A DNA stretch of 64,000 nucleotides from Candidatus Doudnabacteria bacterium. Lineage in GTDB: Bacteria > Patescibacteriota > Doudnabacteria > UBA920. The position numbers and the translations under genes are program-made. Below the pieces are notes generated by a model. It did no database searches and was not told the origin of the DNA. It was given only the letters and a program-made list of their open reading frames with translations. The DNA lies in contig CAVYGQ010000001.1 of the NCBI GenBank assembly GCA_963768175.1, positions 510,305 to 574,304 on the forward strand, in the 5' to 3' direction. This document shows positions 6,155-60,513 of this stretch, in pieces. Numbering within the stretch: the stretch's first letter is position 1; every line of letters starts with the position of its first letter.

Positions 6155-8134
6155 ATGAAACGCGACAACATCCGCAACATCGCCATAATCGCCCACGTTG
6201 ACCACGGCAAGACTACTTTGGTTGACGCCATGCTCAAGCAAACCCATACGGTTAAGGACAACCCCGAGACCAAAGATTTAATTATGGACAGCATGGATTT
6301 GGAGCGCGAGCGCGGCATTACCATTCGGGCGAAAAACGCTTCGCTTATTTATAACGGCATTCACCCCGTTAAATCCGCCGAAGGCGGGGCTGCTTCGCAG
6401 CCATTTAACGGGGTGAAAATTAACCTCATAGATACGCCGGGCCACACGGATTTTGGCGGCGAAGTGGAGCGGACTTTGCGTATGGCCGACGGCGTACTTT
6501 TACTGGTGGACGCCAAAGAAGGCCCTATGCCGCAAACCAAATTCGTGCTTAAAAAAGCTTTGGAGCTCGGTCTTAAAGCCATTGTCGTAATTAATAAAGT
6601 AGATAAACCAGACGCACAGGTGGAAGAGTCCACCAATAAAACTTTTGATTTATTTGTAAAACTGGATGCCAAAGATCACCAACTGGATTTCCAAATTATT
6701 TACGCGGCGGGCAGTTTGGGTTTGGCCGATACCGATTTAGAAAGTTTAAGATCCAAAATCAAAAGCCATGCCGCGCCGGATGTTGCTCCCCTATTTGAGT
6801 CCATAATTAAATTTATTCCAGCACCCGACGTAAAACCTGAAGATCCTTTTGCCATGCTGGTTTTGGCTTTGGTTTACGACAACTACAAAGGCAAAATGGG
6901 CATTGGTAAAATTATTTCCGGCTCCATTAAAAAAGCGCAAACCATTTGCAGAATCAAGACCGACGGCCAGCGCGACAACGGCAAAATTACTTCCTTACAA
7001 ATGTATGAAGGTTTGGCGCCCGTGAACGTGGAAGAAGCCGTAGCCGGCGACATTGTGGCCATTGGCGGCTTTGACGACATTTCCATTGGCGAAACTTTAA
7101 CCGATCCCCTAAATCCCATCCATTTGGAGCCGGTAGAAATAGAGCCGCCCACAATTAAAATGACCTTTGGCGTGAACACTTCCCCGTTTGCCGGCAAAGA
7201 GGGCAAGTTTGTGACCTCCCGCAATTTGCGGCAGCGGCTTTACAAAGAGCTGGAAATAAACGTGGCGCTTAAAGTTGCCCCGTCCGAAGAAGGAGCCGAA
7301 AGCTTTTTGGTTAGCGGACGCGGCGAACTGCATTTGGGAGTTTTGATTGAAACGATGAGGAGAGAAGGTTTTGAACTGCAGGTTTCCCAGCCGCAGGTTA
7401 TTTACCATTATGCTCCAAAATCTCACCCCCACCTAGCCTCCCCCCTCAAGGGGGAGGAAAACAAAGTTTCCCTCCCTGGAGTGGAGGGGTCAGGGGAAGG
7501 TGATATGATTAAGCTTGAGCCCTACGAAATTGTCAGCATAGATGTGCCCAGCGAATATCAGGGCGCGGTAATAGAAAATTTGGGCAAGCGCGGCGGGGAA
7601 ATGCAAGGCCTGGACACCAGCTCAAGCGGCGAAATGCACGCGGAATATCTTATCCCCACCAGAGGGCTTATTGGCCTAAAAAGCTTATTGCTTACCCAAA
7701 CGCGCGGCACCGTAATAATGAACAATTTATTTGACAGCTATAAACCCGTACACGAAATAGATTCCCACGCCAATGACCACGGCAGTTTAATTTCCAGCGA
7801 AACCGGCGTATCCAACGCTTACGGCCTTAACAACGCGCAGGAGCGCGGCATCCTGTTTATCGGCCCAGCCGTGGATGTTTACGAAGGCATGGTAGTAGGA
7901 AAAAACTCTGTAGATACGGACTTGGAATTAAACGTCTGTAAAACTAAAAAACTCACCAACATCCGCTCCTCCGGCACGGACGAAGCCATAATCTTAACCC
8001 CTCCCCGCCCCATTGAGCTGGACTTTGCGTTGGAATACATCGGCCCTGACGAGTTGGTGGAAGTTACCCCCAAGAGCATTCGCATTCGCAAAAAAATCTT
8101 GAACGCCACCGAACGCAAACGCGCCGCCCGCTAA
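6155..8134 (+). CDS. typA: Translational GTPase TypA/BipA (carries two in-frame insertions)
   Basis: [13 protein letters not shown]1 motif, [20 protein letters not shown], and the BipA C-terminal domain. Length 659 aa versus about 600-610 for canonical BipA. Confidence 0.9.
6359..6418 (+). repeat. Palindromic element inserted in-frame in typA. It is a perfect 14-bp terminal inverted repeat ATTCACCCCGTTAAAT / ATTTAACGGGGTGAA enclosing two nested hairpins (CCGCCgaaGGCGG and GGCTGCttcGCAGCC).
   Basis: Seen in sequence. Encodes [18 protein letters not shown] inserted between YNG and [11 protein letters not shown] of the otherwise canonical G domain. AACGG is duplicated at both junctions. Confidence 0.65.
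7421..7504 (+). repeat. Second GC-rich hairpin-bearing in-frame insertion in typA. Hairpins are CCTCCCCC-TCAA-GGGGGAGG and CCCTCC-ctggagt-GGAGGG. Outer ends TCACCCCC...GGTGA resemble the first element.
   Basis: Encodes about 34 extra residues ([34 protein letters not shown]) between the conserved QVIY and IKLEPYE segments. Confidence 0.45.
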
Positions 8135-12214: not shown

Positions 12215-12290
12215 TGGCGCACCCGGTAGGGTTTGAACCTACTGCCTCGTGGTCCGAAGCCACGCGCTCTATACTTCACCCTGTCGCTCA
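12215..12290 (-). other. tRNA-like remnant. It has a canonical T-arm (GTAGGTTCAAACCCTAC), a CCA end and an anticodon-like hairpin (CGTGG-CTTCGGA-CCACG), but no pairable acceptor or D stems.
   Basis: Hand folding fails for the acceptor stem (5 of 7 pairs) and the D stem (0 of 4 pairs). It could be a degenerate duplicate of the adjacent tRNA-Arg. Confidence 0.3.
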
Positions 12291-12367
12291 TGGTGCCCTC
12301 GGCAGGAATTGAACCCACATTACTGGTTCCGAAGACCAGCGCTCTAATCCATTGAGCTACGAGGGCT
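12291..12367 (-). tRNA. tRNA-Arg(TCG), CCA encoded
   Basis: Reverse complement folds as acceptor GCCCTCG/CGAGGGC, D-arm GCTC-AATGGATTA-GAGC, anticodon stem CTGGT/ACCAG with loop CTTCGGA, T-arm GTGGG-TTCAATT-CCTGC (two G-U pairs), then ACCA. Confidence 0.75.
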
Positions 12368-12532
12368 TAACATGAGCGACAGGGCAAGAATGCTTGTCCG
12401 CCGAAGTCCGCATCAAGCGGACGAAGGTGGAAGCTACGGAGTCTCGCCATAAGTTTCAAGTATCATTATAACCAAAATAGGCAATCTTTACCAACGGAAG
12501 GTTACCTGTATCTTATCCTATGATTGTTGCGT

Positions 12533-16507: not shown

Positions 16508-18262
16508 TTATTCCTTTGATACTCTCACCAGTTCCTCAATAGTCGTAATACCCCGTGCCGCCTTAATAAAACCGTCTTCCCACATTAAAATCATACCTTC
16601 TTTTTCCCCCTGTTCCTGAATTTCCTGGGAGCTTTTATGGGCCATGATCATTTGGGCTATAGCCGGAGTCACCTCCAATATTTCGTGAATGCCCAACCGG
16701 CCCCGGTAGCCGGTTTTGGAACACTTATCACAGCCCTCGCCTCTGTAAAACTTTACTTCTTTTAAGCTTTTGCATTTGGCCGGAGCCACTCCCGCGCGCG
16801 TTAAGACCGGCAAAAGTTTGTCCAAATGGAATTGCTTGGACAAAGCTTCTATCGCGGCATCATCCAAAACAAACGGTTTTTGGCAGTCTTTGCAAATTAC
16901 CCTGACTAACCTCTGGGCCAAAACGGCGTTTATGGTAGAAGCGATTAAGTATGGCTCCACGCCAATGTCTAAAAGCCTGGGCAGGGCCGAGGCCGCGTCG
17001 TTGGTATGCAAAGTGGAAAACACAATGTGCCCGGTCATGGCGGCGTGGACCGCCTCTTCGGCGGTTTCCTTGTCGCGGATTTCGCCGATCATAATAATAT
17101 TCGGGTCTTGCCGAAGCAACGCCCGCAGACCCACATCAAAAGTCAAACCGATTTTAGGATTAACCTGCATCTGGTTGGCGCCGACAATCCGGTATTCAAC
17201 GGGGTCTTCAATGGTGGAAATATTGACGCTTTTTGTATTAAGCATGGACAGCACAGTATACAAAGTCGTGGATTTTCCGCTGCCGGTCGGGCCGGTAACC
17301 AAAAGCATGCCGTGGGGTCTTTTTACGTTGCGGTTAATGACTTCATACGAATCTTTTTCAAAACCCAGCTCTTCCAAAGTCATGGCTTTGGCCGATTCGT
17401 CCAAAAGCCGGATAACGACTTTTTCACCGTCAAAAATCGGAATGGTGGATACGCGCAAAGAAAACTTATAGCCGTCTTTTTCTATTTTAAACCTTCCGTC
17501 CTGCGGCAGGCGATGCTCATCTATTTTTAGGTTGGAGATAACTTTAATGCGCGCAACAATTGCCGCCTGGATGACTTTAGGCAATGTCATAACATCGTGC
17601 AGGACTCCGTCTATGCGGTAACGCACGGTCACGGCGTTTTCCTGGGGCTCTATGTGGATGTCGCTGGCCTTTTCCAATACCGCGTATTCCAGCAGCGTGT
17701 CCACCACGCGGATAACCGGAATTTCCTCGGCCATTTTTTTTAAATTATCATCCTTCGCGCTTTCCCCTTCCGCTTGAGCAGCCAAGGGTTTGGATGACGG
17801 CGAAAACAAATGTTTTATTTCCTTTTCCAGGGAGGAATGGTATTTGGAAAGGCCAAAATCCAAACTGGCGCGGCCGATTAAAAAAGTCTTGATTTTCAGG
17901 CCGGTCTTTTTTTGGATAAACTCTTTGGTCTGGATATCTTCCGGATCCTGCATGGCTAAAGACAGCTCGTCCTTAGTTTTGGCAAAGCTAATAACCTGAT
18001 GGCGGTGGGCAATAGGCTCCGGCACCAAATTGAGCACGTCCTGGGGAATTTGCAGGGTGGTTAAATCTATAATCGGAGCACTAAGCAGCTGGCTTTTAAG
18101 CGCCAAAAGTTGCTGTTCAGTTACCGCTTTCTTTTCAATTAAAAAATCTTCCCAAGTTGTTGGGATTTTTACCTGAGACAAATCCTTTTCCAAAACTTCC
18201 AGCTTGTCCTCGGTTAAAATTTTATTTTGTTTTAAAGCCGTGTTTAACTCTTGTTTGTCCAT
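16508..18262 (-). CDS. pilB: Type IV pilus assembly ATPase PilB (GspE family)
   Basis: Walker A GPTGSGKST, GspE N-terminal domain, and the tetracysteine motif CKDC...CDKC. Confidence 0.85.
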   Translation of the reverse strand: MDKQELNTALKQNKILTEDKLEVLEKDLSQVKIPTTWEDFLIEKKAVTEQQLLALKSQLLSAPIIDLTTLQIPQDVLNLVPEPIAHRHQVISFAKTKDELSLAMQDPEDIQTKEFIQKKTGLKIKTFLIGRASLDFGLSKYHSSLEKEIKHLFSPSSKPLAAQAEGESAKDDNLKKMAEEIPVIRVVDTLLEYAVLEKASDIHIEPQENAVTVRYRIDGVLHDVMTLPKVIQAAIVARIKVISNLKIDEHRLPQDGRFKIEKDGYKFSLRVSTIPIFDGEKVVIRLLDESAKAMTLEELGFEKDSYEVINRNVKRPHGMLLVTGPTGSGKSTTLYTVLSMLNTKSVNISTIEDPVEYRIVGANQMQVNPKIGLTFDVGLRALLRQDPNIIMIGEIRDKETAEEAVHAAMTGHIVFSTLHTNDAASALPRLLDIGVEPYLIASTINAVLAQRLVRVICKDCQKPFVLDDAAIEALSKQFHLDKLLPVLTRAGVAPAKCKSLKEVKFYRGEGCDKCSKTGYRGRLGIHEILEVTPAIAQMIMAHKSSQEIQEQGEKEGMILMWEDGFIKAARGITTIEELVRVSKE

Positions 18263-18265
18263 TTG

Positions 18266-18365
18266 CCCGCCTAAATTTTGCCATTTTTGGCACGTTTAAT
18301 TGTTCATCCGCCGTTTGGTTTACTAATACATCCCTATAAGTATTGTATAGCAAAATTTAGGCGGG
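18266..18365 (-). promoter_or_regulatory. 16-bp perfect inverted repeat (CCCGCCTAAATTTTGC ... GCAAAATTTAGGCGGG) starting 4 nt upstream of the pilB start codon; candidate 5'-UTR hairpin or operator
   Basis: Seen in sequence; the arms are separated by about 68 bp. Confidence 0.4.
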
Positions 18366-18703
18366 TGAATTTTTGTTTCTTATACCTTAATTCGCTTAAT
18401 TATTATACCACAAAAAAACTATAGCTCAAAATAAATAAACAAATTCACACGAATACCGCAAACGAATAAACACAAATCCGAGATTCGTGTTTTCGTGCCT
18501 ATTTGTTATTAATTTATGTTAATTGGTGGCTAGCGATCCTGCCTTTCGACCCATTTGACTTAACTCAGGGTCGCCTCGAGTATAACCAAGATGGCGACAG
18601 GCTCAAGACAGGGTCTAGCGACCATGCCCGCCTTCTTGTAAAGCTTTCGACTTCGCCAAGGCTTCGTCGGACGAGTCGGCGGACTGCGGTCTATAATATA
18701 AAA

Positions 18704-34623: not shown

Positions 34624-35265
34624 TTATTTTACAATTTCCAATATTTCTTTTAAACTTTTTGCCTCGTAAAATGCCGGTTTTTTAAAATTTTTATCAGCGG
34701 CGGGATATTTGTAATCCTTATTATATTCTGTGCGGATAAAAATATTTTTTGTGCCCGCGGCAATCCCCGCTTCCATATCCTTGCCCGAATCTCCCACCGT
34801 GTAGCATTCCGCCAAATCCAAATGATAATCTTTGGCCGCATCCAAAAGCAACCCGGGTTTCGGCTTGCGGCAATTGCAGTTGTCGGCTTTATCATGCGGA
34901 CAGACATAAATTGCATCTATGGCCGGGATGTTGGTCTTTAAAAAATCATTCATTCTCATCAGTTCTTCCCAGCTCATCTTTTTCCGTGCCACGTCCGGCT
35001 GGTTGGTATGGACAATATTCAGCCACCCGCGCATTTTCAGCTCGTTTAAAACTTCCGCAGCGCCGGCCACCAGCTTGAAATCCTCAAATTTTTGCGGGCC
35101 GACGTTTTTTTCACCATCAAAGGGCCTAAACGCCAAAACGTGGTTTAGCACGCCGTCGCGATCCCAGAGAATTGCTTTACCCCGCCCCACTTTTCCCAAA
35201 TTTTTGTTTATACCCATAAAATATTTTTTTGATTTATTAAACTCCCAAATTGAAATCTCTTCCAT
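34624..35265 (-). CDS. gmhB: HAD-IIIA phosphatase, D,D-heptose 1,7-bisphosphate phosphatase-like (second GmhB paralog)
   Basis: ILWDRDGVLN...CPHDKADNCNCRKPKPG zinc-binding motif. Confidence 0.65.
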   Translation of the reverse strand: MEEISIWEFNKSKKYFMGINKNLGKVGRGKAILWDRDGVLNHVLAFRPFDGEKNVGPQKFEDFKLVAGAAEVLNELKMRGWLNIVHTNQPDVARKKMSWEELMRMNDFLKTNIPAIDAIYVCPHDKADNCNCRKPKPGLLLDAAKDYHLDLAECYTVGDSGKDMEAGIAAGTKNIFIRTEYNKDYKYPAADKNFKKPAFYEAKSLKEILEIVK

Positions 35266-35282
35266 AAAAAGTGGGGCGGGGT

Positions 35283-55086: not shown

Positions 55087-57324
55087 TTATTTAAGGGAAT
55101 TTATAAAATCCTGAAAATGCTTGGCATCAGCGGCATCTTGGGTAATTAACGATTGGGCGATGGCAATGGCCTCTTGCTTGTTGCCAAGCTTGGCGTCATC
55201 CTGCGCCAAGGCCCAAAGATCCTGCAAAGCGCTCGGGTCAATTTTTACCGCGAGCCGGTAAACATCCGCGGCAGCGGCAAAATTATTTTGCTTATCGTAT
55301 AAAGCCCCAAGCCAGTCAATTTGCCTGGCCGCGGTGGGCTGGTAGCCGGAGTTTAGAACCTCCCGGGCGGTTTGCATAGCTTTATCGCTTTGGTTGGAAT
55401 AATAGTAAATAACCGCAAGCTGAAGTTTTGCTTCGTTATCCTGCGGGATATCGCCGACGATTTTTTCATATATGGCCGCCGCTGCCGTTAGATTATTTTG
55501 CGAAATGTCAAGGCGGGCCAGCATTTCCTCGGGCTCCGGGCGCTTGGGCGCCAAATTCACGGCTGTTTGGGCGGCCAATACTGCATTTGGATCCAAAGCG
55601 GTTTTGTTATAAATGGAATTTGCCAAATACAGGTTGGAAAGATCCTGCCAAGCGGTCGGATCGTTAGGCACCCGCTTTACAGCCTCCTGCTCAGCATTAA
55701 TGGCATCCTGCAGATTTTGACTAATGAACTGGGCTGTTACGCCTGAAGGAGGATTGCCCGCCAAACTCGTGGCAAAATCCGCATACTTTAAGATAAATTG
55801 GACGGGGTCAAAATCAAACGGAGAATTTAACCCTTTGTCAAAATAACTTTTGGCAATTTGCGGGTCAACGGCGGCATAGGCATAGCCGAAATTTACGTCC
55901 TTAGCCACCTGTAGGCCGGTAATATTGCCCAAATAAACAACATATAAAATTACCACGGCCGATATGCCGAACGCCACGCCGGAAAACATCGGATCCAAAC
56001 CGGATTTCCTGTTTTTGTTCGGCGCATCAACCGCGCGTGATTCGTGCCACAAATAAGCCATCAAGCCGATATATATAAAAAATGCCATGCTGGCGCCGAC
56101 GGTATCAAAGACGAATAAATTTTGGATTTGGTAAACTATCAGCCCGCAGACCAACAAACAAAATTCCGGCAGGAGCAAAATTTGTTTGCGGAAGGCCGCC
56201 CACATCGCCCAGAGGGAAAACACCAGCAAACCCAGGTAAGCGGCAAAGCCAAAAATTCCGCTGGTCACCAAAACTTCTATTAAATAATTGTGCGGCTTGT
56301 CAAACCAGCTGGGGTCGTACTGGTAAATTGCGGGGTTGTAATATTTATTGGAAATAAAATAATAATTTTCCGGCCCCACGCCCAAAATCGGATGGTCTTT
56401 ATAGCCCTTAAGCGCCACCCCCCACTGTATCAGCCTGGCCTCAGTATTAACGTCGTTAAGGTTAAACACGCGATGCAGCATCCCCCCTTGCGGAAGATCG
56501 GCATGAAACGTAAACAGTAAAACAACAATAACTCCGAATGCCACGACTAAGGAGCCACCCCATATCCTAATTTTCCTGGCAGGATTTAAAACAACATATA
56601 AGACCGCCGCGACAAAAATACCGATACCCAAACCCACCACGCAGCCGCGGGTCTCGCTCAAAAAAATTACCCAAGCCTGGAGCAGTACAAATACCCAATA
56701 CATAATTTTTTTCCATACCGCCTCTTCCGAAACGGCAAAAAACGCGGCCAAAAACATCGGAATTACCATGAAACTGGCAATGAATATCGGGTTGCCAAAA
56801 GTGCCGGAAACCCTGCGGGTAAGAAGGGTCGTTAAGTAAAAAATGATTATGCGTCAACTGGACCATAACGCCGTCCAAAGAAAGGGTTACTCCAATGCCG
56901 ACCAAAAACTGTAAAAATAGACGCAAATAACGGACATTCATTTGCCCTATCATTAAAACGTAAAAATATAGCAAACAAAGATGGGCTAAATAAAACACGC
57001 CGCCCATGCGCTCAAAGTTGCCCCAAATGCTGCGCAAAGGATTAACCCCGAACAGTCCGGCAATCAGGTTAAACAAAAAAAAGCCAATATGGAAATAGTC
57101 AGGGGGTTTTTAAACGACGGGCGGTATTGGGGGTAGCGCAAAAATAAATACAAATAAAACGGCAGTGCCAATTCCACCAAAATACGGAGATAAAAAGCTT
57201 TGGAAGTGACAAAAGGAAACAGCAATTCCTTAAATACCATAAATGGCGTCAGCATCGCCAAAGCAACCAAACCGATAAATACAAAAGAAACAAATTTTTT
57301 ATTCACCCCGTTAGAAGTCGCCAT
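55087..57324 (-). CDS. O-antigen ligase/polymerase-like membrane protein (Wzy_C domain) fused to C-terminal TPR repeats. The coding sequence is split over three overlapping ORFs (57064-57324, 56567-57076, 55087-56769) by apparent frameshifts.
   Basis: N-terminal fragment MATSNGVNKKFVSFVFIGLVALAML. The Wzy_C-like region contains LVTSGIFGFAAYLGLLVF. The C-terminal 250 aa are TPR-like. The middle ORF decays into nonsense, consistent with a frameshift near 56.8 kb. Confidence 0.5.
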
Positions 57325-57859
57325 GGTTTTGGTATTTAGATAAAATGATATTAATTTAATGATTTATACCCCGAAAAAATTTTTAAATAACTTCTAACGG
57401 GGTTCATTGTTCGTGGGTCAATTAAGCTATACGATAACTTTACATAATACCGGGTGATTTTTCAAGCAAACATAAAATTTTCAAAAGGGAATCTTTGACC
57501 ATTACATCCTAAAACGCACCAAAACCGCCGTAAATATCGTATTAATAGTCAGACGGAAGGCCGTGCCCCGGCCGAATTTTCAATGTCCTAAAAAGGGTGT
57601 ATAATTATAAAGGATAAATAGATAATTATTAACATTTGAAACAAACAACATTTATTCACCCTGTTAGAAGCTTTAACCATTAAATTGGGGCTTTTAGAAC
57701 AGGGGGTTAAAGTTAAAAAAAATAACACAAAAATATGAACCCCGTTAGACATTTAACTCAAAATAATATTTTTGTAAAATTAAGCATCATTAAAATTATG
57801 AAAAATCTAAAAACAAAAATCATATCTAACGGGGTGAATGCTTCTAACAGGGTAAAAAA
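57301..57859. repeat. Array of at least 6 copies (both orientations) of a roughly 16-bp motif TCTAACGGGGTGAAT / ATTCACCCCGTTAGA between and overlapping the divergent starts of the ligase-like gene and the giant surface-protein gene
   Basis: Copies at 57301 (ATTCACCCCGTTAGAAG), 57391 (CTTCTAACGGGGTTCA), 57651 (ATTCACCCTGTTAGAAG), 57736 (TGAACCCCGTTAGA), 57824 (ATCTAACGGGGTGAATG) and 57841 (CTTCTAACAGGGTA), plus a degenerate copy at 57692. The motif matches the terminal inverted repeat of the typA insertion at 6359. Confidence 0.55.
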
Positions 57860-60513
57860 TAGTTTAACAATCAAGCTTACGGCTGCGGTCTTTGCTTTGT
57901 CCGTATTTGGGGCGGCAGGCACGGCTTTAGCTGCCACGCCGATTTTACAGGTAACCCAAAGCGGCAACAGCTATGTGCTTACGGTCAATAATGCCGATGC
58001 CAATGCCACGGTGAGCCTATACGAAAAACAGAGCGCTTCGCTATGGTCGGTAATCAGCAGTTGGGGCCAAACAAGCAGCAGCGGTAGCTTTAGTGCCACG
58101 CAGCCTTTGGCGTTTGACGGCAGCGGTAACGCCCTGCAATTGTATGTAATGGTCGACGGCCTGCAATCCTCTATAGTCAATGTTTATTCCAGCGGCACCT
58201 GTACCACCAACTGCGGCACCGGCACGCTTAGCCTAAGCCAGATGCTGGTAAATTTAAGCACCAACCAGACCAATGTTGTTACGGCCTACCCGACCAGCGG
58301 CAACATTTACGTTTCCGGCAACAGCAACGCCAATGCCGTAAATTACTCCTTAAACGGCAACCAAATCACCGTAACGGGTGTGGCCACGGGCAGCAGCATT
58401 ATTACCGTCTGCTCAAATGGCGGCAGCCAGTGCGGCACCATAACGGTTTCGGTTAACGGCGCGACTACCACCGGCATCACTTTTGACAACAGCAGCCCCA
58501 CCATTACGCTCGGCCAAAGCCTGAACGTCAATATTTACAGCAGCACGGGCAGCAGCAACGGCTTTTACGTTTCCAGCAACAGCAATGCCAACTCCGTAAA
58601 CGTCACGCAAAGCGGCAGCACGCTGACGATTTACGGCCAGCAGGTCGGCACGGCCAGTATTTCCGTCTGCCAGACCGGCACGTCGTTTTGCGGTACGCTG
58701 TCAGTGACTGTGGGCAGCAACGGCGGCCAAGCCGGCATGACCATAAGCACCAACACGCTCACTTTGCGCCCGGCCAGAGCGGCACGGCCACCGTGTCCAA
58801 TACCTACGGCTCCCTCTACATTTTCAATAACTCCAACAGCAGCGTAATAAGCGCCGGCATCAGCGGCCAGACCGTGACTGTTTACGCGATAGTCGCAGGC
58901 TCAAGCACGTTGAGCATCTGCCAAAACGGCTATAGCGGCTGCGTCAGCCTGTACGTGCAGGTCAGCGGCAGCAACAACTCCATTAGCGGCAGTTTGTCGT
59001 TCGGCACGGCCAATCCGGTTTTAACTATCGGCCAAAGCCAGAGCGATACCATTTATCCCCCAAACGGCAACTCAAACGGCTTTTACATTTCCAGTAACAG
59101 CAACAGTAACGCGGTCAGTACCACAATCAGCGGTTCAACTTTAACGATGTTCGGCCAGAACACCGGTACGGCAACTATTAAAGTTTGCAGCAACGATAAT
59201 TCTTACTGCGGCAATGTTTACGCCACGGTCAACGGCTATAGCGGCGGCGTGACATTCAGCCAGAGCACGGTTAATTTGAATCTCAACCAAAACTCCAGCA
59301 TTACCGTATCCGGCGGCACCGGAAGCTATGTGCTAACCAGCAATACCGGCCCGAACGTGGTTGCGGCCTCATTGACCGGCAGCACGCTGTATTTGAACGC
59401 TTTAAATAACGGCAGCGCCACCATTACGGTTTGCCAAAGCGGCAACACTTCGGCCTGCGGCCAGGTTATTGTAACTGTCGGCGGTTCAAGCAACGGCAAC
59501 AACATTATTACCTTCAGCAACAGCAGCCCGGCCGTGGCAGTCGGCCAAAGCCAGACCGTAACCGTCTACACCACCAACGGCTGGACCGGAAATTATTCCG
59601 TAACAAGCAACAGCAATTCAAACGCGGCAACCGTCAGCGTAACAGGCACTTCAATTAACATTACCGGCATACAAAACGGCAGTACTATTATCACCGTTTG
59701 CCAAACCGGCAGTTCGGTTTGCGGCACCCTGACCGCCACAATCGGTACCGGCGCTACCTCCAGCCCGGTTACTTTTGCCACCACCGGCCTGCCAGCCGGA
59801 ACTGTGGGTTTAAGCTACGGCTACCAGCTTCAGGCCCAGGGCGGCGCGGGAAGTTACACTTATTTCCTACCTTCGGGAAGTTTGCCGGCCGGGATTACGC
59901 TTTCCACTGGCGGGTTAATCCAAGGCATCCCCACTGCCACCGGTACCACCAGTTTTACCCTACAGGTTACCGACAGCGGCGGCACCAGCCAAAACTTGAA
60001 TTTCAGCATTACCGTAAACCCCGCTTCTCCGTCTGCCACAACTCCACAAGCTGCAGGCAATGGCACTTATACAAACGGCCAACTGATTAACGAAAACGGC
60101 ACCATATCAATCGTATACAAAAACACCAAAACCCCCTTTGCCAATGCCGCGGCATTTTTGGGTCTGGGTTTTAAGTTCAGCGATGTGTGGCGGTCAGCAA
60201 TTCCGGCTTGCCGCTTTCCAATAAAATAGTAGTGACGGCCGACGGCGGCCACCCGCGCGGCAGCTGGCTGTTAGTCGGTTCTACGGTTTACTTCCTAACC
60301 CCGAACGGAATGATTCCGATACCAAGCTGGGCAATATTCCTCAGTAACGGCGGCCAAGCAGGTTTTCTGGTCAAGGCCAACAGTTACGACCTTAATTTCC
60401 CCAAACTTCCACTAATGGTAGACAATGATGCAAGGTTGAAAATAATGCTAAAAAGTGACCCCACCTCGACAGAGAGGACACCCGAAACCGCGGATCGAAA
60501 TCCCACCCTTTAA
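57798..60513 (+). CDS. Giant secreted Cys-containing tandem-repeat surface protein. It has a signal peptide, about 8 tandem repeats of roughly 85 aa each with two Cys, a putative Ig (He_PIG-like) domain, and a C-terminal F-x-S-A-x-A-F-x-G-L-G-F module. It is interrupted by at least 2 frameshifts (near 58.75 kb and 60.19 kb).
   Basis: ORFs 57735-58847, 58688-60229 and 60187-60513 are consecutive pieces of one repetitive protein. The signal peptide is MKNLKTKIISNGVN...AVFALSVFGAAGTALA. Confidence 0.55.

Follow-up and report, generated by a model that had tools for sequence, protein, structure and literature searches.

A palindromic segment in typA of a Doudnabacteria bacterium, probably a copy of a mobile element whose termini recur in many bacterial phyla

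We analyzed a stretch of 64,000 nucleotides (the window) from a Candidatus Doudnabacteria bacterium (assembly GCA_963768175.1, contig CAVYGQ010000001.1, positions 510,305 to 574,304). Its typA gene, for the essential ribosome GTPase TypA/BipA, carries a perfectly palindromic DNA segment. This segment is very probably a copy of a non-autonomous palindromic mobile element, read through as 18 extra residues of the protein. Such in-frame "selfish DNA in proteins" has so far been treated largely as a Rickettsia curiosity; here it appears in the streamlined genomes of the candidate phyla radiation (CPR) and in many other uncultivated phyla. Of greater interest than the kinship of the element to known kinds is the driver of a family whose ends are the same across all these phyla.

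The insert in typA

The host gene (6155..8134, + strand) encodes 659 amino acids. The assignment of this open reading frame (ORF) to TypA/BipA is supported by phmmer matches to solved BipA structures (E = 1e-169 to 1e-171). An identical database protein, P0001, has the Pfam domains PF00009 (GTP_EFTU), PF03144, PF00679 (EFG_C) and PF21018 (BipA_C), and the gene product has the expected GTP_EFTU G domain with G1-G4, the EF-G-like domains and the BipA C-terminal domain. It aligned end to end with the BipA structures of E. coli and Vibrio save for two insert gaps. The first is a gap-free insert of 18 residues directly before the conserved (V)KIN-IDTPGH; the second, of about 30 residues, follows VIYH. 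The alignment with solved BipA thus bears out the claim of a first-pass annotation of the window that 54 bp, or 18 residues, had been added in frame to an otherwise canonical BipA G domain.

Within the G domain, the insert lies in the loop that joins strands beta2 and beta3. In an AlphaFold model, which used 35 relatives and was mediocre overall (mean predicted local distance difference test score, pLDDT, 58.8), residues 69-84 were modelled as coil with pLDDT <50, between strands at residues 62-66 and 87-93. The model thus puts the insert in the beta2-beta3 turn, a surface loop with switch I on one side and the DxxG motif on the other.

The whole palindromic unit is 58 nt long (6360..6417) and perfect. 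It consists of a left arm, TTCACCCCGTTAAAT (6360..6374, + strand), which is the family terminus described below; a first inner hairpin, CCGCC-GAA-GGCGG (6375..6387, +); a second, GGCTGC-TTC-GCAGCC (6388..6402, +); and a right arm, ATTTAACGGGGTGAA (6403..6417, +). The two nested hairpins had been noticed before and are present in both the sequence and the fold. The terminal inverted repeat had been given as perfect over 14 bp; the arms are indeed 100% complementary, but the repeat finder gave 15 nt for each, with 28 nt between them. The predicted fold is a T-shaped three-way junction with no unpaired bases at the junction. As RNA its energy was -39.8 kcal/mol (z = -6.7), as DNA -27.9 kcal/mol (z = -8.4), and 0 of 200 shuffled sequences were as stable.

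Comparison of filled and empty alleles of typA and of another gene, tex, together with a length rule in coding copies (both below), assigned the 54 nt gained to 6360..6413 (+). They comprise an element-borne TTCA (6360-6363) and a 50-nt core, CCCC...GGGG (6364-6413), and encode about residues 69-86. The last four bases of the right arm, TGAA (6414-6417), are at the position of the native target tetranucleotide, which is TTAA in empty alleles and in locus L001.

Presence and absence among typA relatives

In 117 of the 120 nearest typA clusters there was no insertion at this site and the spacing was the canonical 12 residues. The closest relatives (P0002-P0004, 86-88% identical) lack the insert and read TAT AAC GGC ACC AAA ATT there; other empty alleles read GGT GTA AAA or GGC ATT AAA. 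The insert is lineage-specific and maps to a surface loop, as had been proposed for an alignment of orthologs.

The three clusters that deviate are the source genome, P0079 and P0041. P0079 (locus L001) is from a distant member of the Doudnabacteria whose typA is 73% nucleotide-identical to that of the source genome. At this very junction P0079 carries a 60-nt form of the element, ATTCACCCCGTCAAAT-CCCCC..GGGGG-GCAGCC..GGCTGC-ATTTGACGGGGTTAAA. Between the two genes, 27 of 30 arm positions were identical, against 73% for the gene (binomial estimate, P ~0.02), and two of the three arm changes were compensatory: a T>C change in the left arm of P0079 is paired with an A>G change in the right arm, at the cost of an Asn-to-Asp change. 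The only other typA with the segment thus has the palindrome too, and no unrelated lineage was found to carry the 18 residues without palindromic DNA. Among the matches listed, a metagenome scan with AAYGGNATTCACCCCGT for more typA copies gave mostly chance matches and no further typA.

In P0041 (locus L250) the same beta2-beta3 loop of TypA contains an unrelated 21-nt hairpin, CCTGCCT-ACCGGC-AGGCAGG, giving NPAYRQAG. Its sequence suggests that this loop may tolerate insertions of several origins.

The 18 residues might instead be an adaptive, lineage-specific loop of BipA, with the DNA palindrome incidental or a relic (exaptation). The presence of a similar peptide at the same site in a second, distant lineage would fit this, as would an insert that is in frame, stop-free and kept in an essential gene. 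However, the peptide is predicted to be disordered (pLDDT <50), 117 of the 120 nearest clusters do without any insertion there, in unrelated proteins the peptides encoded by the arms enclose interiors of any kind, and the Asn-to-Asp change in L001 follows DNA pairing rather than peptide conservation. We regard an adaptive loop as quite unlikely.

A family of elements with common termini

The termini of the typA segment define a family, TNNA-CCCCGTTA(G/A)A...T(C/T)TAACGGGG-TNNA. A collection of 596 Gb, with one genome per bacterial species, was scanned with CACCCCGTYARA-N(20-50)-TYTRACGGGGT. At least 120 loci were found, whereas by our calculation about 8 chance matches were expected in the whole collection. 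Among the matches listed, the carriers represent 10 or more phyla: many classes of Patescibacteria, Omnitrophota, Planctomycetota, Bacteroidota, Cloacimonadota, WOR-3/Stahlbacteria/TA06, Nitrospirota, Nitrospinota, Thermodesulfobacteriota and Gammaproteobacteria. All of them are metagenome-assembled genomes (MAGs), some with contigs of 0.15-1.7 Mb. Some mis-binning is possible, as a "Gammaproteobacteria" copy (L091) is nearly identical to a Parcubacteria copy (L031). The suspicion in the first-pass annotation of a dispersed element family was correct, and copies extend far beyond the window.

Perfect pairing usually extends 11-13 nt inward from CCCC, and a 4-nt flank lies outside it. The interior is free, from 9 to at least 75 nt, and the two-hairpin T shape of the typA copy was seen in 30 of 127 copies. 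Interiors differ between genomes and are near-identical within one genome. For example, two copies in two different genes of one Parcubacteria genome (L031) are identical at 40 of 44 core bases, and several copies may occur in one 8-kb locus. Subfamilies defined by the inner arm bases (GAA, GAT, AAT, GAG, GAC) correlate with the flanking tetranucleotides.

Several loci show more complex arrangements. L075 (2403-2644) and L106 (7023-7129) contain tandem head-to-tail arrays in which neighbouring units share a single TTCA. In L040 (5362-6076), the interiors of two copies with the same flanks are reverse complements of each other, like "flip/flop" forms. In the WOR-3/Stahlbacteria loci L045, L048, L062, L066, L081, L092 and L118, the element lies repeatedly between direct repeats of 7-9 nt (AATCTGCGT / AATCAGCGT), which are either part of a larger composite repeat or a specific repeated target of insertion.

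Viral contigs gave only three matches, so phages are not the main carriers, and BLAST against plasmid and phage collections gave matches at chance level only. Rfam recognized two tRNAs in the window and nothing else, the best match on the element being a chance microRNA (E = 0.09); its covariance models gave no match in 18 loci from other phyla. Neither the arm sequences (as 10-mers) nor the arm peptides were found in the searched literature, where nothing relevant on small inverted-repeat elements in CPR or on in-frame palindromic insertions was found beyond PMC10969869.

The distribution of the family also bears on a local origin of the typA palindrome, by template switching during replication that made an inverted copy of the native AACGGNGTNAA and involved no mobility. 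The native typA codons Y-N-G-V/I-K (TAYAACGGNGTNAAA) do resemble the right arm, and there is a direct repeat of TAACGG with a spacing of 54 nt. This origin is contradicted by the presence of the same arms at more than 120 unrelated loci in many phyla. Moreover, Tex, LipA and other hosts show no such resemblance to the right arm, and in empty alleles the junction falls at GGCA^TTAA rather than at AACGG. It is therefore very improbable.

Copies within genes

Among 127 distinct copies, 28 (~22%) lie inside long open frames. Their hosts by Pfam include CarB, GltB, LipA, class II aldolase, a Xer-like recombinase, a pyridine-nucleotide disulfide oxidoreductase, RecG, Tex, a GT1 glycosyltransferase and DNA polymerase I (PolA). 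In 26 of the 28, the length of CCCC..GGGG is 2 modulo 3, while among the 99 non-coding copies none of the three length classes is preferred (39/34/26). From this rule, the net gain is the core plus 4 nt, which is 50 + 4 = 54 for typA of the source genome and 56 + 4 = 60 for P0079.

The reading frames of the arms explain why the surviving coding copies look alike. One frame is closed by a stop (TAG or TAA) in each arm, and another (FTPLE...LTGF) needs particular flanks to stay open. The only frame open through both arms whatever the flanks is (I/V/L)(H/N)PV(K/R)...(S/F)NGV(K/N). Of 25 coding copies with a listed frame, 21 use the HPV(R/K)...(S/F)NGV frame, as in typA. Copies that would break all frames are intergenic, often exactly at gene boundaries.

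Because the coding copies are filtered by frame, we infer that intragenic copies are read through and not removed. As judged from lengths and frames, they are the product of random insertion followed by purifying selection, and splicing or ribosomal bypass is excluded as a general rule. Removal after transcription, or skipping by the ribosome (a mini-intron or bypass), would give a TypA without the 18 residues, and the very stable stem does juxtapose both junctions. Frame and stops would then not matter, yet 26 of the 28 coding copies preserve the frame and are stop-free while non-coding lengths are roughly even, and no gene was found split by an out-of-frame copy. The probability of removal or skipping seems to us close to nil.

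For eleven copies, in silico removal seemed to open a long ORF, as would be expected of split genes or splicing. On inspection, all of them were between genes or at gene starts (hisF/hisI, icd-like, folK), and this candidate was rejected. In L104, for example, the TGA stop of hisF is in the left flank and the GTG start of hisI is in the right arm. In L086, the flank follows an AAGGAG. Elements may donate translation signals at gene ends.

In a few loci (L008, L214 and L242) the right arm continues as ...ACGGGGTTCACCTTAATTGA, which in another frame reads ...LTG/FTLIE with the prepilin cleavage motif TG/FTLIE. A relation to prepilins was considered and rejected, as this reading is not general. 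It may be a coincidence, or the arm may be fused to the starts of pilin-like genes.

Insertion boundaries

Two comparisons of filled and empty alleles placed the junctions with an ambiguity of at most 1-2 nt. For typA, the nearest relative of P0079 is empty and reads GGCA-TTAA-AAT, while P0079 reads GGCA-[TTCA+56]-TTAA-AAT. For Tex of Nitrospiraceae, three alleles have a 72-nt copy, and a sister allele and all others do not. The empty sequence CTGTTTG-TAAA-GGG corresponds to the filled sequence CTGTTTG-[TTCA+68 nt]-TAAA-GGG. L094 and L253, both from the metagenome Ga0104751, are filled and empty Tex alleles of related Nitrospiraceae populations in one sample.

In these alleles, the unit inserted is TTCA plus the core. 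It lies directly 5′ of a native T(A/T)AA, and the target is not duplicated. The flanks over the whole family are in accord: on the left most copies have TTCA, on the right 44 have TAAA, 35 TTCA, 6 TGAA, 4 TTTA and 3 TTAA, and only about a third of the copies have identical tetranucleotides on both flanks. A 4-bp duplication of TTAA/TNNA, or a crossover by a serine or tyrosine recombinase, is ruled out for the main class by the TTCA...TAAA flanks and by the single TAAA in the empty Tex allele.

A target-site duplication of AACGG at the typA junction had been suggested. TAACGG does occur at 6352-6357 and again at 6406-6411, but the second occurrence belongs to the right arm itself and is present in hundreds of unrelated copies; the empty alleles, moreover, place the junction at GGCA^TTAA. 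The repeat is a coincidence.

With vertical inheritance of the typA insert, about 20 precise losses would be needed, as compared with 2 gains. In the Tex tree, the empty allele is weakly grouped inside the filled alleles. The Tex arms are identical at 34 of 34 positions while the genes are 84% identical (P ~0.003), and the interior has diverged about as much as the gene. The typA loss and gain counts and the Tex tree, together with the flipped interiors in L040 and an orientation bias described below, suggest that a permissive loop has gained the element repeatedly at a preferred tetranucleotide, that the element is often lost seamlessly, or both.

A possible mechanism

In the explanation we favour, an element that is selfish or neutral for the host would have landed in the codons of the beta2-beta3 surface loop of the BipA G domain. 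It would be moved in trans by an enzyme that recognizes the folded hairpin and the flanking tetranucleotides. Continued turnover, conversion from other copies, or correction of quasi-palindromes by template switching would keep the arms perfectly paired.

Hairpin ends, one element-borne and one target tetranucleotide, no duplication, an orientation bias and seamless loss are typical of Y1 HUH transposition, as in IS608/ISDra2 and REP-RAYT systems. A miniature inverted-repeat transposable element (MITE) moved by a DDE transposase is disfavoured because there is no target duplication. By analogy, a single-strand mechanism of the HUH/Y1 type ("peel and paste") would be a better fit because of the missing duplication, the insertion next to a tetranucleotide, the orientation bias and the apparent precise loss. 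We propose it as a rather doubtful possibility.

Several observations weigh against a mobile element. The same typA site is filled in two distant lineages, for which either a preferred target or many precise losses must be assumed. Different genomes have only the termini in common, which is odd for a MITE. A search of about 1 Mb of loci for an autonomous partner, that is, terminus pairs 0.3-4 kb apart that enclose an ORF, found none. In the same loci, a crude regular-expression scan, which is a weak test, found no Y1 transposase or RAYT-like N-terminal motif near the copies. The arms evolve more slowly than the host gene, and the 14-nt termini are identical across phyla. Finally, orientation relative to gene direction is biased about 19:6 (about 3:1) in both flank classes.

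The last two observations could indicate a host function. The hairpin might be a functional cis-element of RNA or DNA kept by the host, for example a structure in the mRNA that adjusts translation or decay, or a palindrome bound by a protein, and the typA copy would then be regulatory. The many intergenic copies exactly at gene starts or stops, where they supply a TGA stop or a GTG start, would be in line with this. The copies, however, are at unrelated positions within at least 10 unrelated proteins, and they are present in some close relatives and absent from others. There is no conservation of the interior, the T shape is limited to 30 of 127 copies, and Rfam gave no match. The sense strand of coding copies usually has a C.A mismatch and is not the G.U-compatible strand, which argues against selection for an mRNA stem. 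We consider a cis-element unlikely, and prefer a mobile element for typA.

Comparison with known elements

A resemblance to Rickettsia palindromic elements (RPEs) had been proposed. RPEs (Ogata et al. 2000, as summarised in PMC10969869) are restricted to Rickettsia and code for a conserved peptide; they are ~100-150 bp long and make up about ten families. The present elements are likewise short, palindromic, non-autonomous repeats that occupy unrelated housekeeping genes in frame, where surface loops tolerate them, and that also occur between genes; their read-through, deduced from the frame filtering, would be a further likeness. They differ in size, in conservation over the element and in host range: the typA copies are 54-60 nt, the family includes elements as short as ~30-60 nt, conserves only its ~14-nt termini and is present in at least 10 phyla. 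The resemblance holds for in-frame insertion and is functional, but by description (size, host range) the family is set apart from RPEs.

Prokaryotic MITEs such as Correia, ERIC and Nezha have been reviewed (PMC10969869). The present elements share with them small size, lack of coding function, terminal inverted repeats, occasional in-frame copies, and start codons or signals at gene ends. They also share the presence of dispersed, near-identical copies in one genome, as at 6.36 kb and 57.3-57.9 kb of the window, in L031 and in other 8-kb loci. Classical MITEs have a target-site duplication, which was absent in the two filled/empty comparisons (typA and Tex), and a recognisable parent insertion sequence (IS) with the same terminal repeats, of which none was found in the ~1 Mb of loci searched.

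Derivatives of IS200/IS605 (palindrome-associated transposable elements, PATEs) and REP/BIME repeats, which Y1 HUH transposases mobilise, are similar in their hairpin-defined ends, their insertion next to a tetranucleotide without duplication, their element-borne tetranucleotide, their orientation bias and their potential for seamless excision. The fixed tetra- or pentanucleotide-adjacent insertion without duplication and the terminal tetranucleotide of its own, both as in IS200/IS605, are found in the present family. The ends of IS200/IS605 elements, though, are two separate subterminal hairpins, and the one long terminal stem seen here is atypical, a point against the HUH mechanism. REPs carry 5′-GTAG and are extragenic, while the present copies have no GTAG, are flanked by TNNA, and are intragenic in ~22% of cases.

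The attC sites of integrons are imperfect palindromes with GTT/AAC core boxes, a variable structured interior, strand-specific biology and a wide phyletic spread, and resemble the present elements in these respects. Their core sites are in the order 5′-RYYYAAC...GTTRRRY-3′. All copies here are in the inverse order, 5′-CCCCGTTARA...TYTAACGGGG-3′ (5′-GTTRRR...YYYAAC-3′ within CCCC/GGGG), and are not in cassette arrays.

The family appears distinct from RPEs and from the other known kinds, and was not found in Rfam or in the searched literature. It is plausible, but still tentative, that it represents a hitherto undescribed, multi-phylum family of minimal hairpins with invariant ~14-nt termini (TNNA-CCCCGTTARA). 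These would insert without target duplication next to T(A/T)AA or TTCA, exit seamlessly and use a widely shared, possibly HUH-type single-strand machinery. They would repeatedly add loops of 10-25 residues to essential proteins of uncultivated bacteria (CPR, Omnitrophota, Planctomycetota, Nitrospirota and others). If so, there would be an unrecognised mobilisation system with a very wide host range and an unusual insertion chemistry without target duplication. It would account for many of the short, disordered "lineage-specific inserts" in MAG proteins, such as those behind the variable length of TypA in Doudnabacteria. Such inserts confuse annotation, alignment and structure prediction, and would serve as natural insertion scans that mark permissive loops in essential proteins.

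Further copies in the window

Besides the typA copy, the window contains at least three further copies of the family. The terminal sequence had been reported to recur at 57.3-57.9 kb, and it does so four times (57302-57316, 57393-57403, 57739-57749 and 57825-57835); an exact match of 11 nt is expected about 0.06 times per 64 kb by our calculation. Exact occurrences of ACCCCGTTAGA form two more inverted pairs, which we call copies B and D.

Copy B (57302..57406; 105 nt) reads TTCA-CCCCGTTAGAAG...CTTCTAACGGGG-TTCA, is AT-rich in its interior and overlaps the start of an ORF (57064..57324, - strand) whose product has the N-terminus MATSNGVNKK. Copy D (57736..57838; 103 nt), also with an AT-rich interior, overlaps the 5′ end of an ORF (57735..58847, +) that reads ...ISNGVN... 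there. The two copies, found by repeat and motif search, are ~70% identical and inverted relative to each other. Copy D is nested inside a degenerate outer copy (57655..57856) with 32-nt arms, TTCACCCTGTTAGAAGC / GCTTCTAACAGGGTAAA, that form an inverted repeat with 81% complementarity.

An inverted-repeat search found a relative of ~110 nt, copy E (18261..18370), with the variant arms ATTTGCCCGCCTAAAT / ATTTAGGCGGGTGAAT. It abuts the start codon of a PilB/GspE-like gene (16508..18262, -). The copies of 105-110 nt are thus at the 5′ ends of 57064..57324 (-), 57735..58847 (+) and 16508..18262 (-), where the arm either encodes an N-terminal SNGVN or abuts the ATG. An element of ~104 nt at 35179-35282, which overlaps the start of an ORF (34624..35265, -), is built like copies B, D and E but has different arms. 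Its interior is AT-rich, and its terminal inverted repeats (ACCCCGCCCCACTTTT/AAAAGTGGGGCGGGGT) are perfect over 16 nt.

Other inserts in typA and another inverted repeat

The second gap in the BipA alignment corresponds to a second insertion in typA, unrelated to the first (7409-7501; residues ~419-449, 31 residues encoded). It is a G/C-rich imperfect palindrome (CCTCCCCC-TCAA-GGGGGAGG, GGGAGGAAAAC/GTTTCCCTCCC) with a fold of z = -2.2. Insertions have a hot spot after VIYH: 19-39 extra residues are present there in about 20 of the 120 nearest typA clusters, with differing sequences that are often multi-hairpin (e.g. SPLPLGEGQGEG types). P0079 has a third insert, DKCFDSAKGARGGGSNPAPLVGGGDASPIE, after INKV (L001, ~6455-6540), and several relatives have an insert of 9-10 amino acids (TLDGVPLTAEASSGGG type) after ALKV (alignment columns ~440-450). 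Because of such inserts, the length of TypA in Doudnabacteria varies from 611 to 660 amino acids.

At 12279-12384 of the window, a perfect 14-nt inverted repeat (CCCTGTCGCTCATG / CATGAGCGACAGGG) brackets a tRNA gene (12294-12366, -).

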